Below are positions 4,085 to 34,768 of a stretch of 64,000 nt of DNA, piece by piece. The DNA comes from a virus. Its lineage: Duplodnaviria; Caudoviricetes. How positions within the stretch are numbered: the stretch's first letter is position 1; every line of letters starts with the position of its first letter. Where the stretch lies: the IMG/VR virus record IMGVR_UViG_3300005611_001698, positions 130,409 to 194,408 of that record. One strand, written 5' to 3'. The notes under the pieces were generated by a model, which saw nothing but the letters and a program-made list of their open reading frames with translations, searched no databases and was not told where the DNA came from. The translations under genes were made by a program, and so were the position numbers.

Positions 4085-5641
4085 TTAGAATTCTAAAACG
4101 ATTTTAATATCTTCTTTTTGGTTTGACGATCTTAAAACAGATGGTCTATTATCTACATAGATTATCTGTCCACTTTGAGGTTTTACCTCTGGGTTTGCTA
4201 CACCTTTGTCAAACGTCTGGCCTAGGAAGTAGGTCCTATTATTTAGAACGGTAGATATACCTGTAAAGGAAGTATCGATAGCAACTGTTGCTGTTCCTCC
4301 TGCAATATTGAAAGACGCGCTTAGATCACCATCTGGAAGAGTGTTTTGGAATCGCAAAAGTTTATATCCGTAAAGAGGAGCAGTTCCGACAGTAGAAGAA
4401 GTCGCAACACGATCATCTTGCCAATATTTTAAAACACCAGTATTTGAATCCCAAGATACAACTCTACCAATCGCAGTTGATCCAAATCCAATTGTTTGTG
4501 TTATCACATCATCTGGTGTAAACTCTATTTGATCAAGTTGAGAACCAGTAACTCTTAATGCATAAACTGCGCTTGCTTTATCCGATGAAAGTTTTGTTGT
4601 AGATCCATAAACAAGAGGATCTTTTACAACTCCAATTCTTGCAAACTCATTTCCAGTGATAAAATCTGGATTAGTACTATCATTTTCAAGTCTGGAATAG
4701 ACCATAACTTTACGAGCACCCAATTCAGAGTAAATATCGGAACCATGACCACCATTTGGAGGAATCACAACACTTGTTACTGCATCAGTGCTTGCATTTG
4801 AGTTAGTGATTCCAGCACCTTCCAAATCAAGAGTACCAAAAGAATATCCAGATCCACCAGAGGAAACATCTACGGATTCTATTTTCCCATCAGCATTAAC
4901 TGTAACACTAGCTTTTGCACCATCACCATCTCCTAAAATATCTACATTGCTATAAGTTGTTGCAGTTCCATATCCAGTGCCTCTATTACTAATAGTTACG
5001 ATTTTAATCTGACCACTAGTTGCAGCATTATCTCTGACTGCTGCATTTGCACTTCCAGTTTTCCAATCTTCTGGAACTGGAATGAAGTTAGTTGATTCAA
5101 ATCTCAAAATATCAGATGGAGTAAGAGTGTAGAGATATTTCCACACATAACCATCACCACTGCTTCCAGCAGCTCTTGGTTCCAAATCAGTGAATACCGG
5201 TTCATCGAGAGATGGCTTACCAGTTGGATTTTCTGGAGAAAATCCATTATCTAAACAAATATAAACTCTATAATCTCTATTGATTATGTAATATTTTGAA
5301 CTATAAAGTGTAGTAGAGTTTGAGACCGGAGCAAGATTATTTCTACTATAATCATGTCTATACATATCATATTTTTCACCAGAAGCCCATACATATTTTT
5401 CAACAACCCTCCTTATATCGGAAGCGTTAATTTTTTTCAAAGCAATCATCGTATCCCAATAACGATTCTCTTGATTTAAAGAATCAATCGGTGCAGGTGG
5501 ACTGGTATTCCAAGTTGGAGATAAGTCAGTTGCATTTGGTAGTCCAACCCAAACGTAGTATGAACTGCCAGTTGACGCAATTCCTGCACGAAAGTTTTCA
5601 GCACTAAGTATACGAAACTGATCAGTAATGATTGCGGACAT
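4085..5641 (-). CDS. gp8: T4-like baseplate wedge subunit gp8
   Basis: MSAIITDQFRI, YDMYRHDYS, VYICLDNG, DGYVWKYLYT and C-terminal YVDNRP..R..NQKEDIKIVLEF; gp25-gp6-gp7-gp8 synteny. Confidence 0.9.
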   Translation of the reverse strand: MSAIITDQFRILSAENFRAGIASTGSSYYVWVGLPNATDLSPTWNTSPPAPIDSLNQENRYWDTMIALKKINASDIRRVVEKYVWASGEKYDMYRHDYSRNNLAPVSNSTTLYSSKYYIINRDYRVYICLDNGFSPENPTGKPSLDEPVFTDLEPRAAGSSGDGYVWKYLYTLTPSDILRFESTNFIPVPEDWKTGSANAAVRDNAATSGQIKIVTISNRGTGYGTATTYSNVDILGDGDGAKASVTVNADGKIESVDVSSGGSGYSFGTLDLEGAGITNSNASTDAVTSVVIPPNGGHGSDIYSELGARKVMVYSRLENDSTNPDFITGNEFARIGVVKDPLVYGSTTKLSSDKASAVYALRVTGSQLDQIEFTPDDVITQTIGFGSTAIGRVVSWDSNTGVLKYWQDDRVATSSTVGTAPLYGYKLLRFQNTLPDGDLSASFNIAGGTATVAIDTSFTGISTVLNNRTYFLGQTFDKGVANPEVKPQSGQIIYVDNRPSVLRSSNQKEDIKIVLEF

Positions 5642-28130: not shown

Positions 28131-28304
28131 CCGCCGAACATTTCATCAAAGAGAGGAGTTTCCTGAAGACGTTGCTGGTCATAAGCATCACGAACAGCAA
28201 AGATTTCTTGCTCAACCATACGAACCTCAGCACGTTTCATTTCAAGTTTGTGACGCAATTCGTAGAGTTTCTGATTACGTTCGGTGATGGTCATTTGAGG
28301 TCGA

Positions 28305-28379
28305 TTCCTTTGACTCTCTTAATATACACGGGATTGGACCCCGTGGGGAGAATGGTGGACACTTTGACCAACTGGCACA
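28305..28379 (-). promoter_or_regulatory. Early promoter cassette 4
   Basis: GGACACTT-tgacc-AACTGGC; nearly identical to cassette 5. Confidence 0.8.
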
Positions 28380-29127
28380 GGGGCAGAGTCAGGGGCAGGG
28401 TGGTGAGACTCAAACTAGACTCAAACCGCCCCAGTGATAGCAAGGGTTCTCAAATTATAAACAATGGATTTTCTTGCATTTTGGTTCGGGACGGGTGCTA
28501 GGTCATCAGCAACGCTCCCGATGCAGGAAAAAACAAAGTTATCAATCAAGGCAGTATTCTTCGTAATTTTCAATACTACCAAACTCTTCCAAAAAGTAAT
28601 CCAAAGTAAGATTTTGCTCCTTACAAAATGATACTATTTCATCATAATCTTCCTTGCAATGAAATACTGCTTCGTGCCAATCTGTCTCAACTGTGAATAA
28701 CTCAGAAGAGCGGTCTTCAGTGATAATGCCGAAACGGGGAAAGTCCATCATTTAACCTCCAACAATAGGGTTGACACCAATCACTTTTGCCTTAGGATTG
28801 CGGACACAGGCTGTCTCTCTTGCATCCTTATAATTGCTGGCATAAACTTCTTCGGTGAAGACTTTGCCACCAACGTATAACTTAACTTCCCATTTCATTT
28901 TTGATAATACTCCCCGATTGCTTTACTCATTGCGATAAGTTGTTCATGAATCTGATCAACTTCTAGGCGGAGATTCTCATCTTCACCCAGTAAACTCATC
29001 AGATCAACTTCACTCCAGTCCTGCGTTTCAATGCCTCCACCGATATACATTGGGGTGTAATATAGTGTGCCCTCACTATCAATGGAATAGGCACAACCTT
29101 GCTTGTCAGATGTAAGAATGATCATGA

Positions 29128-29869: not shown

Positions 29870-29875
29870 GGTGCG

Positions 29876-29950
29876 TTCCCTTGACTCTCTTAATATACAC
29901 GGGATTGGACCCTGTGGGGAGAATGGTGGACAGTTCTCTCAACCGTCCAC
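29876..29950 (-). promoter_or_regulatory. Early promoter cassette 5
   Basis: GTGGACAGTT-ctctc-AACCGTCCAC near-perfect palindrome. Confidence 0.8.
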
Positions 29951-30141
29951 CCCCTCCCGCATTTGTTTAACAATTTTGCTCAAATCGTTTGCTACATCAG
30001 TCATCGCAGATCGAGAATATCCTGTAGCATAAGGATAACCTTGATCCTCATTTTCAGGTGCTTCATAACAAACATTGATCGCACTATTCAGACGGTCAAT
30101 GATCATTACCAGTTGATCATCAATGGAGAAAAAAGTATTCA

Positions 30142-30330: not shown

Positions 30331-30338
30331 GGCGCGAA

Positions 30339-30413
30339 TCCCTTTGACTCTTTTAATATACACGAAACCAAACCCCATGGGGGGAATGGTGGACACTTCA
30401 ATCAACTGGCACA
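30339..30413 (-). promoter_or_regulatory. Early promoter cassette 6
   Basis: GGACACTT-caatc-AACTGGC; -10 TATATT. Confidence 0.8.
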
Positions 30414-31304
30414 AGCAAAGCGACCATTGTTAAAGTTTGCGTGAGAGAATTGCATACGATCAACTAACTTAAACATGCCATAATTGTTGGTTCTCACATA
30501 ACCTTCGCCACCACATTGACGATTGCCGATATATGCTTTCGGTCCATTGTTGCGGCAGAGAGACAACATCTGCATCTTGATTGACTCCACTAGCTTCCAC
30601 AAACGCAGCACATTTACATCGATTTGATTAGCAAATGCCAGTGCATCTAGCGTGATGTCATCAATATCGAGACCAGCACGAATGATGCTATTAAGTTGTT
30701 GCTGAACCTGACGTGATTGCTTGTCAGTCATGAACTCGCAAGTCGTGGACATTTGACGTGCAAATGCAATGACCCCAGTAGGATCAGCATCAAGTTCCCA
30801 ACAACGTGGCATGACAAATTTGCAGGTGTCAGTGTCACTAGGAGCAGAATCTAGCGGGCGAGCAATAGCATCGCGCAGGTCATTCTCTGCGGTGTAAAGT
30901 GTATGTGGAGCAACAATAATCGTCTGCTCAATTATCTCATCAAAGATGTAAGTGATCGTGTTGGGAGTATAAGTATCGTCACCACCAAACCCAATAAAAT
31001 CACCTTGCACGATAGAATCTGTGCGAGGAAGATTAGCAAAACAAGCATGAAGAATAAGCGCAACTTCACCTTCATGGTTCGCATCAATTTCTTCATGAGA
31101 ATGATTGATCTTGATCTTTACTTTGTTGAAGACAGATTTGGTTCCGACGAAGAACTTTCCGTTGGCAGGATTCGTCCCCCATACAATAGCGGGACAACCG
31201 TCAATTTTAACGCTAAGAGTGCTAGAATCAGTGAACCAATCGAGCACAGTAAGATCACCCGAAAGGATAGAATCTTCTGGATGTTGGAGATGAGTGTTTT
31301 TCAT
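30402..31304 (-). CDS. Conserved T4-like phage protein (DUF6267-like) with ligase/nucleotidyltransferase-type motifs
   Basis: MKNTHL.HPED, KIDG.PAIVWG, GTKSVFNK, QGDF, GEGYV, FKLVDR..FS.ANF. Confidence 0.65.
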   Translation of the reverse strand: MKNTHLQHPEDSILSGDLTVLDWFTDSSTLSVKIDGCPAIVWGTNPANGKFFVGTKSVFNKVKIKINHSHEEIDANHEGEVALILHACFANLPRTDSIVQGDFIGFGGDDTYTPNTITYIFDEIIEQTIIVAPHTLYTAENDLRDAIARPLDSAPSDTDTCKFVMPRCWELDADPTGVIAFARQMSTTCEFMTDKQSRQVQQQLNSIIRAGLDIDDITLDALAFANQIDVNVLRLWKLVESIKMQMLSLCRNNGPKAYIGNRQCGGEGYVRTNNYGMFKLVDRMQFSHANFNNGRFACAS

Positions 31305-31307
31305 GCT

Positions 31308-31371
31308 TTAATAATGACACAGAATCAGGTCAAAGTCAAGAGGTAGTGGACACTTCATACCACTGTCACAC
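31308..31371 (-). promoter_or_regulatory. Early promoter cassette 7 (TTGACT-N17-CATTAT plus palindrome)
   Basis: Shows the palindrome lies just upstream of a -35 hexamer. Confidence 0.75.
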
Positions 31372-32209
31372 GGTTTGTTTTGTAAAGTAAGATTTCTCTT
31401 GCTTTTTTGGCAGCAAATCCGTCTTCTGTTTTCTTCCTACGACCAGCAGTATAGGTGATGTCGAAGTAATGAACCTGCATTGATCTTGATTGATCCTCAA
31501 ACCAGTCATCATCAGCACGGTTAGCAACAAAAACTAATTTTTGTGCATCGGCAAAGTCTAGAAGGTCCATTAGTGCATCATCCCCAAAACCGTTGCCATA
31601 ATCTGCAAAACTATCACGATATGGTGGATCAAAGAAGAAAAAACCGTTAGGATCGTTGGTTACAGCATCCTTCCAATCTCCTGATTTGATGGTAACATTC
31701 TGAAGTGCATGATGCCACCAGTTGAGCACATCACGATCATAAACTTTGTCCTTCTGGTTCAACAATCCAGCAGGAGTTCCATACCTTCCGTTGGTATTTT
31801 TATTCAGTTGGTAGATACCATTGAACCCAGTCTTCATCAAAAAATATAGAGTTGCTGCCTCATATGTCTTGCTCCATTCTTGATACTCCCAGGCATGAAG
31901 ATGACGGGTATCAAAGTAAAACTTTTTACGATCAACTTTGCTCAGTGGCAGATACTGAGATTCAAGACTGTCCAGACGTTGTTGAAACTCATCTAGGTCA
32001 GTTTTGATTGCTTTGTAGATATTCATGACATCAGAGTTGATGTCATTGATCACCACATTCTTTGGTTGGTAAGTGTTCATCACATGGACAAACATTGCCC
32101 CACCACCAAAGAACGGTTCGTAGTAATTTTCAAAGGAAGATGGCATAAAAGGTGCATAATGTTTCAGCACCTTTGTCTTACCACCTGCCCAAATAAAGAT
32201 AGGTTTCAT
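31355..32209 (-). CDS. D12/Dam-family N6-adenine DNA methyltransferase
   Basis: WAGGK, EPFFGGGA, INDIN, GFNG, FFDPPY (alpha class). Confidence 0.9.
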   Translation of the reverse strand: MKPIFIWAGGKTKVLKHYAPFMPSSFENYYEPFFGGGAMFVHVMNTYQPKNVVINDINSDVMNIYKAIKTDLDEFQQRLDSLESQYLPLSKVDRKKFYFDTRHLHAWEYQEWSKTYEAATLYFLMKTGFNGIYQLNKNTNGRYGTPAGLLNQKDKVYDRDVLNWWHHALQNVTIKSGDWKDAVTNDPNGFFFFDPPYRDSFADYGNGFGDDALMDLLDFADAQKLVFVANRADDDWFEDQSRSMQVHYFDITYTAGRRKKTEDGFAAKKAREILLYKTNRVTVV

Positions 32210-32745
32210 GCAGGGAAAAGAGTATTGATACGCTCGGTGATTACTTCAACCATTATATCATTGATTTCCTCTTTAGTGAAGCAATCGGTGTTGAGGTATG
32301 CACTATTCTCACCAGGATTGTATTGATTAAACCCTTGCAGGTGAGCAACATTTAATGCCTTGCCAATCGTACCATCTTCATATGCACCTTCACCAGTGCA
32401 GAACGTAACGTAACTCACCTCAGGGTTAATCTTGCGGCAGATGTAGTTGTTTTTGAACCAACGCTCGATGGCATTACCTGCATCCTGCTGTTTCTTACCT
32501 TCAAAGACTGCAATCAGCACACCGTTGTAGAACCAAGCACCACCATCAGGTTCGCAAGCACCTTTACCACCAGGAATCTGTTCCTTAGTGAGTTTCTTTT
32601 GCAGAGTAAGTTCAGGATATTGTTGCTTCAGTTCAGCAAACACATCCTGCTTCAGATGCTTACATTGCTCATCAAGTTTGCGAGCACGGGCATCAGTGGC
32701 AACAGTACCGTTCTGAATACCACCGTTGAAACGATAGATCGTCAT
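32206..32745 (-). CDS. EcoRI-fold type II restriction endonuclease-like protein
   Basis: PDGG..FEGKKQ..AGNAIERWFKN matches EcoRI PDGG..EAKHQ..AGNAIERSHKN; ATGA overlap with the MTase. Confidence 0.75.
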   Translation of the reverse strand: MTIYRFNGGIQNGTVATDARARKLDEQCKHLKQDVFAELKQQYPELTLQKKLTKEQIPGGKGACEPDGGAWFYNGVLIAVFEGKKQQDAGNAIERWFKNNYICRKINPEVSYVTFCTGEGAYEDGTIGKALNVAHLQGFNQYNPGENSAYLNTDCFTKEEINDIMVEVITERINTLFPA

Positions 32746-32747
32746 AA

Positions 32748-32927
32748 TCAATAAGAATAGGTAGAAAGATTGCGAGCAGGAACATAATAACCATCATCAG
32801 GTTTGTTCACATCATAAACCCAGATGATTTCATCTTCTTGTGCTTCGTAAGTCTTGAATCCAAACATTGGAACTAATTTGACCATCAGAGCACCCCAATG
32901 ATACTCTGTTTCAAAATCAAAAATCAT
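32748..32927 (-). CDS. Small hypothetical protein (59 aa)
   Basis: MIFDFETEYHWGALMVKLVPMFG..; first gene after cassette 8. Confidence 0.55.
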   Translation of the reverse strand: MIFDFETEYHWGALMVKLVPMFGFKTYEAQEDEIIWVYDVNKPDDGYYVPARNLSTYSY

Positions 32928-32931
32928 GTGG

Positions 32932-33007
32932 TTTCCTTTGACTCTTTAATAATACATGGGATCGGACCCTATGGGGAGAATAGTGGACACTTCAACCAAC
33001 TGGCACA
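32932..33007 (-). promoter_or_regulatory. Early promoter cassette 8
   Basis: GGACACTT-caacc-AACTGGC; nearly identical to cassette 2. Confidence 0.8.
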
Positions 33008-33008
33008 G

Positions 33009-33452
33009 TCATCGACGAGTATATGTTAGTGTGATTGTGTCTTTCAGATTGCTGATGTTTGTGAGATTGTAACCCTTCAAAAGTTGTGCATTGTCATGAT
33101 TTGCTCTGGTTTTGATGCGATGACACTCTTTGCATAGTAACTGACATTTATCAACTTCTGGTAGTATTCTTGACAAATCCCAATCAATTATTTTCCCAAT
33201 AGTGTATAGTTTATCTGCTCTGTTTATGTGGTCAAATTGCAAATTCTCTGTCACACCACAACCTACACATTTCCCACCCAAATGCTCAACAAGTTGTTGT
33301 CTCTTTCTTCTGCGTAGTTCTCTAAGTTTTTCTGTCTTATGCTCTCTATTTTGTTTAGACCATTCACTATTCCTTTTAAGTTTTTCTTTCCTGTAAGTTT
33401 CATCAGTTTGATATTTGTCTCGGTGCCATTCTGCACCAGTATTTTTATTCAT
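33009..33452 (-). CDS. Free-standing HNH endonuclease (homing-endonuclease-like)
   Basis: CVGCG..LQFDHI..CQLLCKECH..KT; basic N-terminus. Confidence 0.85.
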   Translation of the reverse strand: MNKNTGAEWHRDKYQTDETYRKEKLKRNSEWSKQNREHKTEKLRELRRRKRQQLVEHLGGKCVGCGVTENLQFDHINRADKLYTIGKIIDWDLSRILPEVDKCQLLCKECHRIKTRANHDNAQLLKGYNLTNISNLKDTITLTYTRR

Positions 33453-33496: not shown

Positions 33497-34687
33497 TTAT
33501 CTCCTGACAACAGAATCAAGCAGTTCACCTTTCTCAAAAACAGTATTCACAACATTACGAAGTGCACGTTCGGTAGCAACACCAACCTGAGAATAAACAG
33601 GGACAACACAAAGCCCAAACGTCTTGGATTCTGCACCCAGACGCAACACTCGACCGATGGTTTGAGTGAGTTCAATCACATCCATGTTACGCAGGAAGAT
33701 GACAGTTTCCAGTTCGCTGACGTTGATACCCTCAGAGAGAATAGAGCGATGGAGAACAACAAACTTTTTCTCAGGATCTTTGCCCCATGCGTTCAGAGTG
33801 TTGAAGAACTCCTCACGATTGACCTTACGACCATCAACAACTGCACCCGTCTTGGATGTAATGTAGAGGCAGGAATAACCACGCTGAGCAAGTTGAATCG
33901 CAAAGTCAGTTGTTGACATCAGATTCATAAGTTGACGGGAAGTCTTGACACAAACCAGAATCTTCTTGGTGTCAGTCTCTTCAATCGTATCAATCACATT
34001 CTCAGCATCAGTCTCACACGAAATCATTCGCGTATTCTTGTGCATGGAGAACTGTTTTGCTTGAATACGAGGAGGGATAATGTATCCACCTTCGACTAAC
34101 TCAGGAGCAGAAACACGAGCAATGATTTGACCATAAACTGCCTCATCATTCATTCCTGGTTTATTGATAGTGACCGAAGTCTTGCGCGTTGCAGTGAAGA
34201 AGTAGCAACGATCTGCCTCGTTAGAGAAGAACTCAGTGGCAGGGAAAAAGTTACGCTTGACACTGTTGTGTGCCTCATCAAAGTAGATCGTATTGACCTC
34301 AATATCTGACTGCTGAATACGATCAAGCGAATTGTAGGTGGTGAAGATCAATACGTTCTCACCAGCAGTCCGCGCAGTGTTAGCGAACAGGTGAATCTGT
34401 GCTGGTTTGGTAGTAGAATAGTGATGCGTCTCACCACTATGAACGTGCATCACATGAGTGTTGGAAGTATCAATCAGTTCCAGAAACTCACTGCACAGTT
34501 GTTCTGCCAGCAGAATACGCGGAGCAACAACAACTGTGGTGGTGCCATTGTTGACAGAATCGTGACGATTCTTGGTATCAACAATCATGCACATGGTTTT
34601 ACCACCACCAGTGGGCACAATCACCTGACCTTTATCATATGCAAGCATACGATCAGTGATGCGCTGTTGATGTGGACGGAGTTGCAT
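33497..34687 (-). CDS. SF2 helicase (ResIII/DEAH-type)
   Basis: LRPHQ, PTGGGKT, DEAH, TAT, LSEGINV, QTIGRVLR; start MQLRP after cassette 9. Confidence 0.88.
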   Translation of the reverse strand: MQLRPHQQRITDRMLAYDKGQVIVPTGGGKTMCMIVDTKNRHDSVNNGTTTVVVAPRILLAEQLCSEFLELIDTSNTHVMHVHSGETHHYSTTKPAQIHLFANTARTAGENVLIFTTYNSLDRIQQSDIEVNTIYFDEAHNSVKRNFFPATEFFSNEADRCYFFTATRKTSVTINKPGMNDEAVYGQIIARVSAPELVEGGYIIPPRIQAKQFSMHKNTRMISCETDAENVIDTIEETDTKKILVCVKTSRQLMNLMSTTDFAIQLAQRGYSCLYITSKTGAVVDGRKVNREEFFNTLNAWGKDPEKKFVVLHRSILSEGINVSELETVIFLRNMDVIELTQTIGRVLRLGAESKTFGLCVVPVYSQVGVATERALRNVVNTVFEKGELLDSVVRR

Positions 34688-34690
34688 TGA

Positions 34691-34768
34691 TTTCCTATCG
34701 ATGAATGTAATATAGAACAAAAAAAGACCCCTTGCAAGTGGGTGTGTGCCACTACATTAACTGTCGCA
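34691..34768 (-). promoter_or_regulatory. Early promoter cassette 9 (TTGCAA-N17-TATATT plus degenerate palindrome)
   Basis: GCCACT-acatt-AACTGTC. Confidence 0.65.

Follow-up and report, generated by a model that had tools for sequence, protein, structure and literature searches.

The DNA considered here, referred to as the window, is a stretch of 64,000 nucleotides (nt) covering bases 130,409-194,408 of a 194,408-bp virus record (IMGVR_UViG_3300005611_001698; Duplodnaviria, Caudoviricetes). All its genes of interest lie on the minus strand according to the open reading frame (ORF) call, and two of them are the subject of this work: a small ORF that resembles the restriction endonuclease EcoRI and, overlapping its end, an ORF for an N6-adenine DNA methyltransferase of the D12/Dam family (Table 1). 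The ATGA in which the nuclease stop and the methyltransferase start overlap is predicted to couple their translation. The nuclease ORF may start from TTG at 32751 (181 amino acids, aa) or from ATG at 32745 (179 aa), and its homologues use ATG. In a preliminary description of this DNA, the two genes were taken for a phage-borne type II restriction-modification (R-M) pair in which a minimal nuclease of the EcoRI fold is coupled with a methyltransferase of the Dam family. The ORF coordinates, motifs and ATGA overlap given there are correct, as judged by ORF translation and the sequence at 32206-32209, and the proposed nature of the pair is supported by fold, profile homology, co-occurrence of the genes and site statistics. 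The pair is likely to be a type IIP R-M module of a lytic T4-like cyanomyovirus, whose nuclease would cut AATT and whose D12 methylase would protect AATT.

A miniature relative of EcoRI

The translation of the nuclease ORF contains PDGGAWFYNGVLIAVFEGKKQQDAGNAIERWFKN, in which the catalytic residues P66-D67 ... E82-x-K84 are followed by Q86 and by G90-N91-A92-I93-E94-R95. An AlphaFold2 model built on 31 relatives has a mean predicted local distance difference test (pLDDT) score of 81. When it was used as a query in Foldseek, ranks 1-5 were all EcoRI entries, with E-values from 5.9e-7 to 1.3e-5, and rank 6 followed at 1.8e-2. In an all-against-representatives structural alignment, the model matched EcoRI 2oxv with Z 14.7 and a root-mean-square deviation of 2.4 over 154 of its 179 residues, the next-best chain reaching Z 9.4.

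At the sequence level, the homology to EcoRI becomes visible only when the family has been sampled widely. PDB sequence searches with the single protein and with a profile of its close family (A1) matched no nuclease, and a broader profile (A2), composed of 50 diverse members down to 31% identity, matched five EcoRI sequences with E-values from 3.4e-10 to 6.9e-9. The A2 alignment consists of two blocks, PDGG...EAKxQGK on EcoRI residues 90-117 and GNAIERxxKN on residues 140-149. Between them it jumps from residue 117 to 138, so that EcoRI 118-137 has no counterpart; this DNA-wrapping arm segment, a feature of the EcoRI family, is absent from the small nuclease. We take the missing segment to be the inner arm.

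In EcoRI numbering, the nuclease of the window keeps D91, E111 and K113 of the catalytic centre, together with Q115 and the whole run G140, N141, A142, I143, E144 and R145. Among 85 aligned copies, P66, D67 and R95 are present in all 85, while E82, K84, Q86, N91 and E94 are present in 84, the sole deviant row being a distant bacterial fragment. The I143 equivalent is replaced by His in 10 of the 85 rows; the other listed motif residues are kept in 84-85 of them. These residues have a known meaning in EcoRI: Ala142 acts as a wedge at the central step of AATT, the A:T pairs of this core are bonded by Asn141, Ala142 and Arg145, and the contacts of the arms are confined to the backbone outside the recognition site (PMC4081073). 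Titles in the reference list of the same paper assign Gln115 to the inner thymidine and describe Glu111, Glu144 and Arg145 as essential (PMC4081073). The 179-aa protein is thus a stripped-down EcoRI homologue, reduced to the catalytic centre and the AATT reader.

The family is widespread in environmental data and nearly anonymous. It comprises 391 relatives of similar length among ~5.8 billion clustered proteins, the 120 best having identities of no less than 69%; one of these 120 is named "restriction endonuclease [Synechococcus phage S-CREM2]", and two carry a precomputed PF02963 (EcoRI) label. An exhaustive profile search of 1.84 billion representatives gave 272 matches at E <=0.001 and 202 at <=1e-10, mostly of 165-200 aa; the 10 distant cluster representatives looked up were metagenome proteins, none with a protein name. 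The nuclease is encoded in just 65 of 50,697 phage records, namely 64 of S-RIM2 and S-BM1 plus S-CREM2. The S-RIM2 copy is "uncharacterized" in the UniProt-derived BFVD, and the PHROGs match, phrog_2400, is of "unknown function". The resemblance to EcoRI is already on record, since the GenBank note on S-CREM2 gp11 reads "restriction endonuclease EcoRI". When bacterial and archaeal genomes were scanned with patterns derived from cyanophages, only one weak Bacteroidota fragment came up, in which the motif is missing. A search of the full-text literature, which did not cover REBASE, found no paper on a cyanophage AATT or EcoRI-like R-M pair; in the available part of the S-CREM2 paper (PMC10665884) the Dam gene alone is mentioned, and methylases are merely counted in that of a review (PMC10452541). 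No match to the nuclease was obtained with the NCBIfam and PADLOC libraries. As PADLOC has no model for the nuclease and Pfam misses it, a PADLOC-type tool would label the methylase of such a pair and overlook its companion.

The partner methyltransferase

The partner, METHYLTRANSFERASE, is a D12/Dam-class enzyme by family models: it matches Pfam D12 PF02086 at 4.6e-33 (115.5 bits against a cut-off of 22) and TIGR00571 dam with 144.4 bits (cut-off 114.85), and stays far below the threshold of the EcoDam equivalog NF008152 (54 bits, cut-off 441). Its best solved relative is DpnM (2.9e-26, identity ~30%).

The recognition hairpin reads FNGIYQ...PAGLL and bears Gln where EcoDam has Arg124. In the alignment with EcoDam, the hairpin residues Phe129, Asn130, Ile132 and Pro146 correspond to Tyr119, Asn120, Leu122 and Pro134, respectively, while Gln134 takes the place of Arg124, Ile6 that of Lys9, and Leu149-Leu150 that of Arg137-Tyr138. 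The same holds throughout the subfamily, as tallied in 64 partner methylases (50 distinct). The Arg124 position is Gln in all 64; Arg137-Tyr138 is Leu-Leu in 63 and Leu-Met in one; and in 53 the place of Lys9 is taken by Ile, Met, Val or Thr. No copy deviates from Phe at the Tyr119 position or from the equivalents of Asn120 and Pro134, and each of the 63 copies that span the DPPY motif has it intact. In EcoDam, the first base pair is recognized by K9 and Y138 and the third by L122 and P134, with Y119 as the intercalating residue; R124 bonds the fourth-pair guanine, and an R124A enzyme works faster on GATT and GATG than on GATC (PMC4417163). Relative to the GATC enzymes Dam, DpnM (M.DpnIIA) and T4 Dam, the partner methylase therefore shares the family, the DPPY motif, the intercalating aromatic residue with its Asn and the hairpin Pro, but differs in the replaced outer G:C readers (R124 to Q, Y138 to L, K9 mostly hydrophobic). 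Judging from these residues, the methyltransferase has retained what is needed for the central A-T step, while its residues for reading the outer G:C pairs are gone, a combination that would fit an xATx enzyme such as one for AATT. Most likely, it methylates AATT and so protects the phage DNA. The homologue in S-CREM2, gp8, is diverged (32% identity); it has Gln at the R124 position and keeps Lys at the K9 position.

It might be supposed that the methyltransferase is an ordinary orphan Dam specific for GATC which adjoins the nuclease by chance; the assignment to the Dam family by Pfam and TIGR00571 and the GenBank label of the S-RIM2 homologue, "DNA adenine methylase", would agree with this. 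Since the Arg124 position is Gln in every partner, however, the enzyme is not a plain GATC Dam, and the refuting case named in the preliminary description, a methylase for plain GATC, has thereby been looked at with a result that favours the R-M pair. The overlap of the genes and the co-occurrence of the subfamily with the nuclease also speak against an orphan, as does the presence of another, different D12 methylase elsewhere in the genome, and this explanation appears extremely unlikely. The second D12 methyltransferase belongs to another subfamily (hairpin FSGLTE...) shared by the genome of the window (G000) and records G003 and G010. Its gene lies outside the window, at 91081-91977 of the same record; the phage therefore has two Dam-class enzymes.

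Linkage of the nuclease and methyltransferase genes

A search of IMG/VR with the nuclease profile yielded 107 confirmed relatives, of which the best 80 loci were kept. The partner methyltransferase is found in 62 of these 80, at E 3.8e-54 or better; two partner copies truncated at the end of a contig reach 6e-34 and 9e-83. In the 62 paired loci, the two genes are adjacent or overlapping in 45, separated by an insertion of 0.9-1.4 kb in 15, joined in the same open frame in one and reversed in one. Both genes also occur in the 64 isolate records of S-RIM2 and S-BM1. The methyltransferase homologues in the phage collection are those of these 64 nuclease-bearing records, at ~79% identity, after which none exceeds ~34%; the partner subfamily was not found without the nuclease in any of the 50,697 phage records. 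Linked and co-oriented nuclease and methyltransferase genes are what is expected of a type II R-M system.

The 18 loci without the partner are heterogeneous. One contig stops 71 bases past the nuclease, in another an MT-A70 methylase occupies the partner position, and in the remaining loci DUF6267, a 2OG-Fe(II) oxygenase or small ORFs stand beside the nuclease. On the nuclease tree, the state "adjacent methylase" has changed at least four times. The absence of a methylase from a locus or a fragment is weak evidence, because in G003, a complete record of 189,882 bp with a "solitary" locus, a partner-type methyltransferase lies 18 kb from the nuclease.

Several loci deviate from the common arrangement. 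In L052:1878-3296, nuclease and methylase share one open frame, in L045:1566-2137 the nuclease is split over two ORFs, likely by a frameshift, and in L068:1-1141 the methylase comes first, in reversed order. L067:3441-4501 belongs to a podovirus-like contig with a T7-type RNA polymerase, where an MT-A70 methylase follows the nuclease. The optional gene of ~1 kb found between nuclease and methylase in 15 of the 62 paired IMG/VR loci is missing in the window; in S-RIM2 KX349264 (L001:3875-4918) it encodes 347 aa (phrog_2558) with weak ParB-like and DUF6551 matches. In S-CREM2 OR473000 (L085:5001-7379), a pyrimidine-dimer glycosylase and a small ORF separate the nuclease gp11 from the D12 methylase gp8. 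Contigs of two metatranscriptome libraries cover methylase relatives and parts of the nuclease over window 31371-32604 (85-95% alike); such contigs do not prove transcription and are therefore not used as evidence.

Loss of AATT follows the nuclease gene

Observed and expected counts were compared for all 16 four-base palindromes under a maximal-order Markov model. In 77 distinct nuclease loci (455 kb), the observed/expected ratio (O/E) of AATT is 0.43 (median 0.39), as against 0.84 (median 0.81) in 80 nuclease-free, helicase-anchored control loci (702 kb); the Mann-Whitney p for this difference is 5.2e-21. Among the other 15 palindromes, GTAC differs most, with p 3.7e-4 and in the opposite direction. 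A third set, of 75 nuclease-free loci anchored on another gene, gives 0.80 for AATT. The frequency in cassette-free relatives amounts to ~6 AATT sites per kb.

At the level of whole records the loss can be complete. Record G001 (111,864 bp) contains no AATT where 340 are expected, and G002 (73,883 bp) none where 233 are expected; a re-check with a separate tool on one stretch confirmed the zero, dinucleotide shuffles giving 36.7 +/- 5.6. Both records bear the nuclease, and no methyltransferase homologue was found in either. In G003, which carries both genes, 186 AATT are observed against 1156 expected (0.16), and five other records with the nuclease and methylase pair have AATT O/E of 0.12, 0.16, 0.19, 0.41 and 0.62. 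On the nuclease tree, the AATT-free and methylase-free pair of records stands beside methylase-bearing lineages that are nearly AATT-free (0.03 and 0.08), with a node support of only 84/85. In the window itself, GAATTC occurs in 11 copies against 26.9 +/- 5.2 in dinucleotide shuffles, all 100 of which contain at least 11. The earlier statement that GAATTC is not avoided has to be corrected accordingly: the sites cited at 4088 and 20262 exist, yet the hexamer is depleted, and AATT is depleted too.

Two independent lines of evidence, the conservation of the residues that read AATT and the depletion of AATT linked to the gene, combine to single out AATT as the best estimate of the target. The nuclease most likely recognizes this 4-bp palindrome itself, rather than GAATTC, which had been considered as a possible target. 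Nor would the specificity be a new one, as had been thought possible, since the AATT core is the target of MluCI.

A longer site, such as GAATTC, CAATTG or RAATTY, would be in line with the solved relatives EcoRI and MunI, which read 6 bp. In addition, K129, which is Lys in 65 of 85 rows, may, in an alignment by eye, sit at what we take to be the position of the outer-base residue Arg200 of EcoRI. On the other hand, all ten NAATTN contexts are depleted, the remaining sites being enriched for AAATTN, and G001 and G002 are devoid of AATT whatever its flanks; the residue preceding GNA also varies (A, R, K, V and others). The need for a longer site is thus decidedly unlikely. Relaxed (star) activity of EcoRI itself is directed to N/AATTN (PMC4081073).

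Other palindromes are avoided in these phages as well. CCGG is absent from G001, G002 and G003, where 99-154 copies are expected, and GGCC, AGCT and GTAC are strongly depleted in most records, the genome of the window included (observed/expected counts there are 43/137 for CCGG, 46/134 for GGCC and 187/436 for AGCT). The loss of CCGG, GGCC, AGCT and GTAC is likely due to restriction by hosts, as no gene in view explains it.

Several points weigh against AATT as the target of an EcoRI-related phage enzyme and its protecting methylase. First, the nuclease scores only 14 bits with Pfam EcoRI PF02963 (cut-off 22, E 0.027), and none of the 96 relatives scanned reaches this cut-off, five being sub-threshold. 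Second, the loci are related, and the Mann-Whitney p therefore overstates their independence. Third, the whole genome of the window has 990 AATT against 1432 expected (0.69, baseline 0.80-0.84), with five other palindromes lower, and is not decisive alone: a value near the baseline is expected if methylation protects the DNA, but would also be seen if the nuclease had no effect. Fourth, two partial records bear the nuclease, many AATT sites and no methyltransferase, namely G004 (62 kb, 29% complete; 391 sites, 0.66) and G005 (23 kb, 11% complete; 170 sites, 0.73). If their missing parts also lack a methyltransferase, the simple model fails for them; a PF01555 methylase is absent from G004 and G005, as it is from G001 and G002. 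Fifth, a scan for promoters and terminators gave 9 and 2 sites, respectively, where shuffles have 9.1 and 2.7. Being no better than chance, the scan is silent on timing, and the earlier suggestion that the pair is expressed early is not backed by it. Finally, the total loss of a site can come from host restriction, since CCGG has also gone from G001-G003.

The last point can be extended to the whole phenomenon. AATT may have been lost under AATT-specific restriction by the hosts, in which case the small protein would be a repair or recombination nuclease or one for another site, and the methylase an anti-restriction device. The avoidance of several palindromes without an explaining gene (no CCGG in G001-G003; GGCC and AGCT strongly depleted) is consistent with such a history. 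Yet AATT is the only one of the 16 palindromes that tracks the nuclease gene, the two nuclease-free control sets remaining at 0.80-0.84; the nuclease keeps exactly the residues with which EcoRI reads AATT; and the methyltransferase subfamily never occurs without the nuclease in the phage collection. Host restriction as the cause of the AATT loss is accordingly regarded as very unlikely.

Layout of the locus and possible exchange of cassettes

The features of the locus are collected in Table 1. In the direction of transcription, the order is helicase, HNH gene, 81-nt repeat, 59-aa ORF, nuclease, methyltransferase, partial 27-nt repeat and DUF6267 gene. The 59-aa ORF, the nuclease and the methyltransferase probably form one transcription unit. 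The HNH gene shares the variable slot with the nuclease pair and is placed between the helicase and the repeat.

Table 1. Features of the proposed R-M locus and its surroundings (window coordinates)
Feature	Position	Strand	Evidence or remark
Helicase gene	34720..33497	-	
HNH endonuclease gene, 147 aa	33009..33452	-	PHROG HNH families down to 5.5e-26; Pfam HNH sub-threshold
81-nt intergenic repeat, full copy	32928..33008	-	Directly upstream of the 59-aa ORF
59-aa ORF, function unknown (phrog_12800)	32748..32927	-	First gene behind the upstream repeat
Mini EcoRI-family PD-(D/E)XK nuclease ORF, 179 aa + stop	32206..32745	-	ORF, fold, profile, motif
ATGA stop/start overlap of nuclease and methyltransferase	32206..32209	-	Plus strand reads "tcat"
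D12/Dam-family N6-adenine DNA methyltransferase ORF, 284 aa + stop	31355..32209	-	PF02086, TIGR00571
Partial 27-nt repeat copy (31344-31370), then promoter-like TTGACT-17-CATTAT	31311..31370	-	Ahead of the DUF6267 gene
DUF6267 gene	31304..30402	-	Pfam 6.4e-80

The repeats had been noted before as "cassettes" that bound the pair, and they are real: a full 81-nt copy lies upstream, and a partial copy of 27 nt comes directly after the methyltransferase stop. Three further copies of the intergenic repeat (28300-28380, 29871-29951 and 30334-30414) are located upstream of other small genes. The minus-strand core of the repeat reads GTGTCCACCATTCTCCCC...GTATATTAA.AGAGTCAAAGGAA and is followed by ATG. 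It resembles the mobile regulatory cassettes of T4-type phages.

The nucleotide match to S-RIM2 and S-BM1 (~81% identity) is limited to window 31344-32733, a segment that begins at the partial repeat and ends at the start of the nuclease, with unmatched flanks. In S-RIM2 and S-BM1 the pair lies upstream of the helicase, whereas in the window it is found downstream. L108 is the closest relative by helicase (92% nucleotide identity), and its helicase and DUF6267 genes align with those of the window, but the slot between them holds other genes. This slot (L108:2829-4485), which corresponds to window 31355-33452, contains a 67-aa ORF, a 195-aa protein (phrog_21547, no known family) and, abutting it, a 260-aa beta-class N6_N4 methylase (PF01555). 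The 195-aa protein is predicted with confidence to have a PD-(D/E)XK fold (pLDDT 92), its best matches being BstEII, the nuclease domains of NucS/EndoMS and Can2, and EcoRI. Judging by this model, the L108 cassette is a second R-M-like cassette, and the helicase-DUF6267 slot seems to be a site for the exchange of nuclease-methylase cassettes.

The 195-aa family was found in 84 loci: two of the 80 retrieved with the nuclease, five of the 80 anchored on the helicase and 77 obtained in a search with the profile of the family itself. In both L009 and L010, a gene of this family lies ~850 bp upstream of the EcoRI-like nuclease. CTATAG is observed 8 times against 55 expected in the loci of the family, as compared with 90 against 77 in controls, which makes it a candidate target of this cassette.

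The signs of mobility bring up the possibility that the pair is a selfish R-M cassette, which punishes its own loss or cuts cassette-free relatives and is of little benefit against the host. The confinement of the S-RIM2/S-BM1 match to the module itself, the position of the pair on the other side of the helicase in those phages and the different nuclease-fold and methylase pair in the same slot of L108 would all be expected of such an element. So would the flanking repeats, the HNH gene alongside and the optional genes between the restriction and modification genes of 15 of 62 loci. Nevertheless, a selfish cassette needs the same enzymology as an R-M module of the phage, and the nuclease retains its full set of catalytic residues in lineages as distant as 36% identity. 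Lineages that have dropped the methyltransferase still carry the nuclease as well, which therefore appears to be useful in itself. A purely selfish cassette is, on balance, an unlikely explanation.

Comparison with known systems

EcoRI (type IIP, G^AATTC; 1ERI, 1CKQ, 2OXV; PF02963) shares the fold with the small nuclease, along with the identical residues listed above. The differences concern length (277 residues against 179, the small nuclease being shorter in its N- and C-terminal parts), overall sequence (18% identity) and the site, of 6 bp in EcoRI and, most likely, 4 bp here. The partner methylase is of the D12 class, outside the family of the EcoRI methylase. MunI (C^AATTG; 1D02) belongs to the same PD-(D/E)XK branch, is also small (a chain of 200 residues) and has the AATT core; however, it is a weak structural match (Z 6.8, rank 21) and was not matched by sequence in the PDB searches.

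MluCI, Tsp509I, TspEI and Sse9I, compared by specificity alone, have the target proposed for the small nuclease, but they are bacterial and not phage-borne. MluCI is named with AATT specificity in PMC8919816, and EcoRI, MunI and MluCI have been grouped as possible mosaics (PMC4081073).

As to the way of life of the carrier, a parallel is provided by the R-M systems of chloroviruses (e.g., CviAI/M.CviAI of PBCV-1), where a lytic virus likewise encodes a site-specific nuclease and a matching methylase. Those are viruses of eukaryotic algae, and the enzymes are unrelated. Chlorovirus R-M systems are used against host DNA. We know of no methylase-free and site-free variants among them.

Proposed mechanism and significance

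With the sequence statistics pointing to AATT as the target, the lytic phage probably uses the restriction enzyme as a weapon. The packaged phage DNA would carry N6-methyladenine at AATT. Once the DNA has been injected, expression of the coupled genes would provide a nuclease, presumably acting as a homodimer, to attack the unmethylated AATT sites of the host chromosome and of co-infecting phages, while hemimethylated daughter DNA would be re-methylated by the partner. Lineages purged of AATT could do without the methylase, which they seem to have lost. The main benefit may be nucleotide scavenging, host shut-off, exclusion of rivals or just the spread of the cassette itself. A more general proposal, to which we give even chances, is that marine T4-like cyanophages employ an AATT nuclease as a weapon and protect themselves either by methylation or by erasure of AATT with loss of the methylase, the helicase-DUF6267 slot being a hot spot for such cassettes.

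Restriction-modification is a textbook means of bacterial defence. Here, the R-M pair is found in lytic phages of the ocean's main photosynthetic bacteria, and its nuclease exists in hundreds of environmental variants. The type of R-M system is known and so, probably, is the specificity; it is the carrier that is unusual, along with the miniature size of the enzyme, the retargeted Dam scaffold and the existence of methylase-free and site-free relatives. To our knowledge, T4-like cyanophages lack the modified cytosine of T4. If the proposed role is true, it would partly answer how these phages attack host DNA while sparing their own, and would offer a mechanism for phage-phage exclusion. The partner methylase would demonstrate the retargeting of a GATC Dam scaffold, and an EcoRI-type enzyme as small as ~180 aa is on offer for structural and engineering work. 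Finally, the relatives devoid of both the site and the methylase would represent a clean natural example of self-immunity achieved via erasure of the target.

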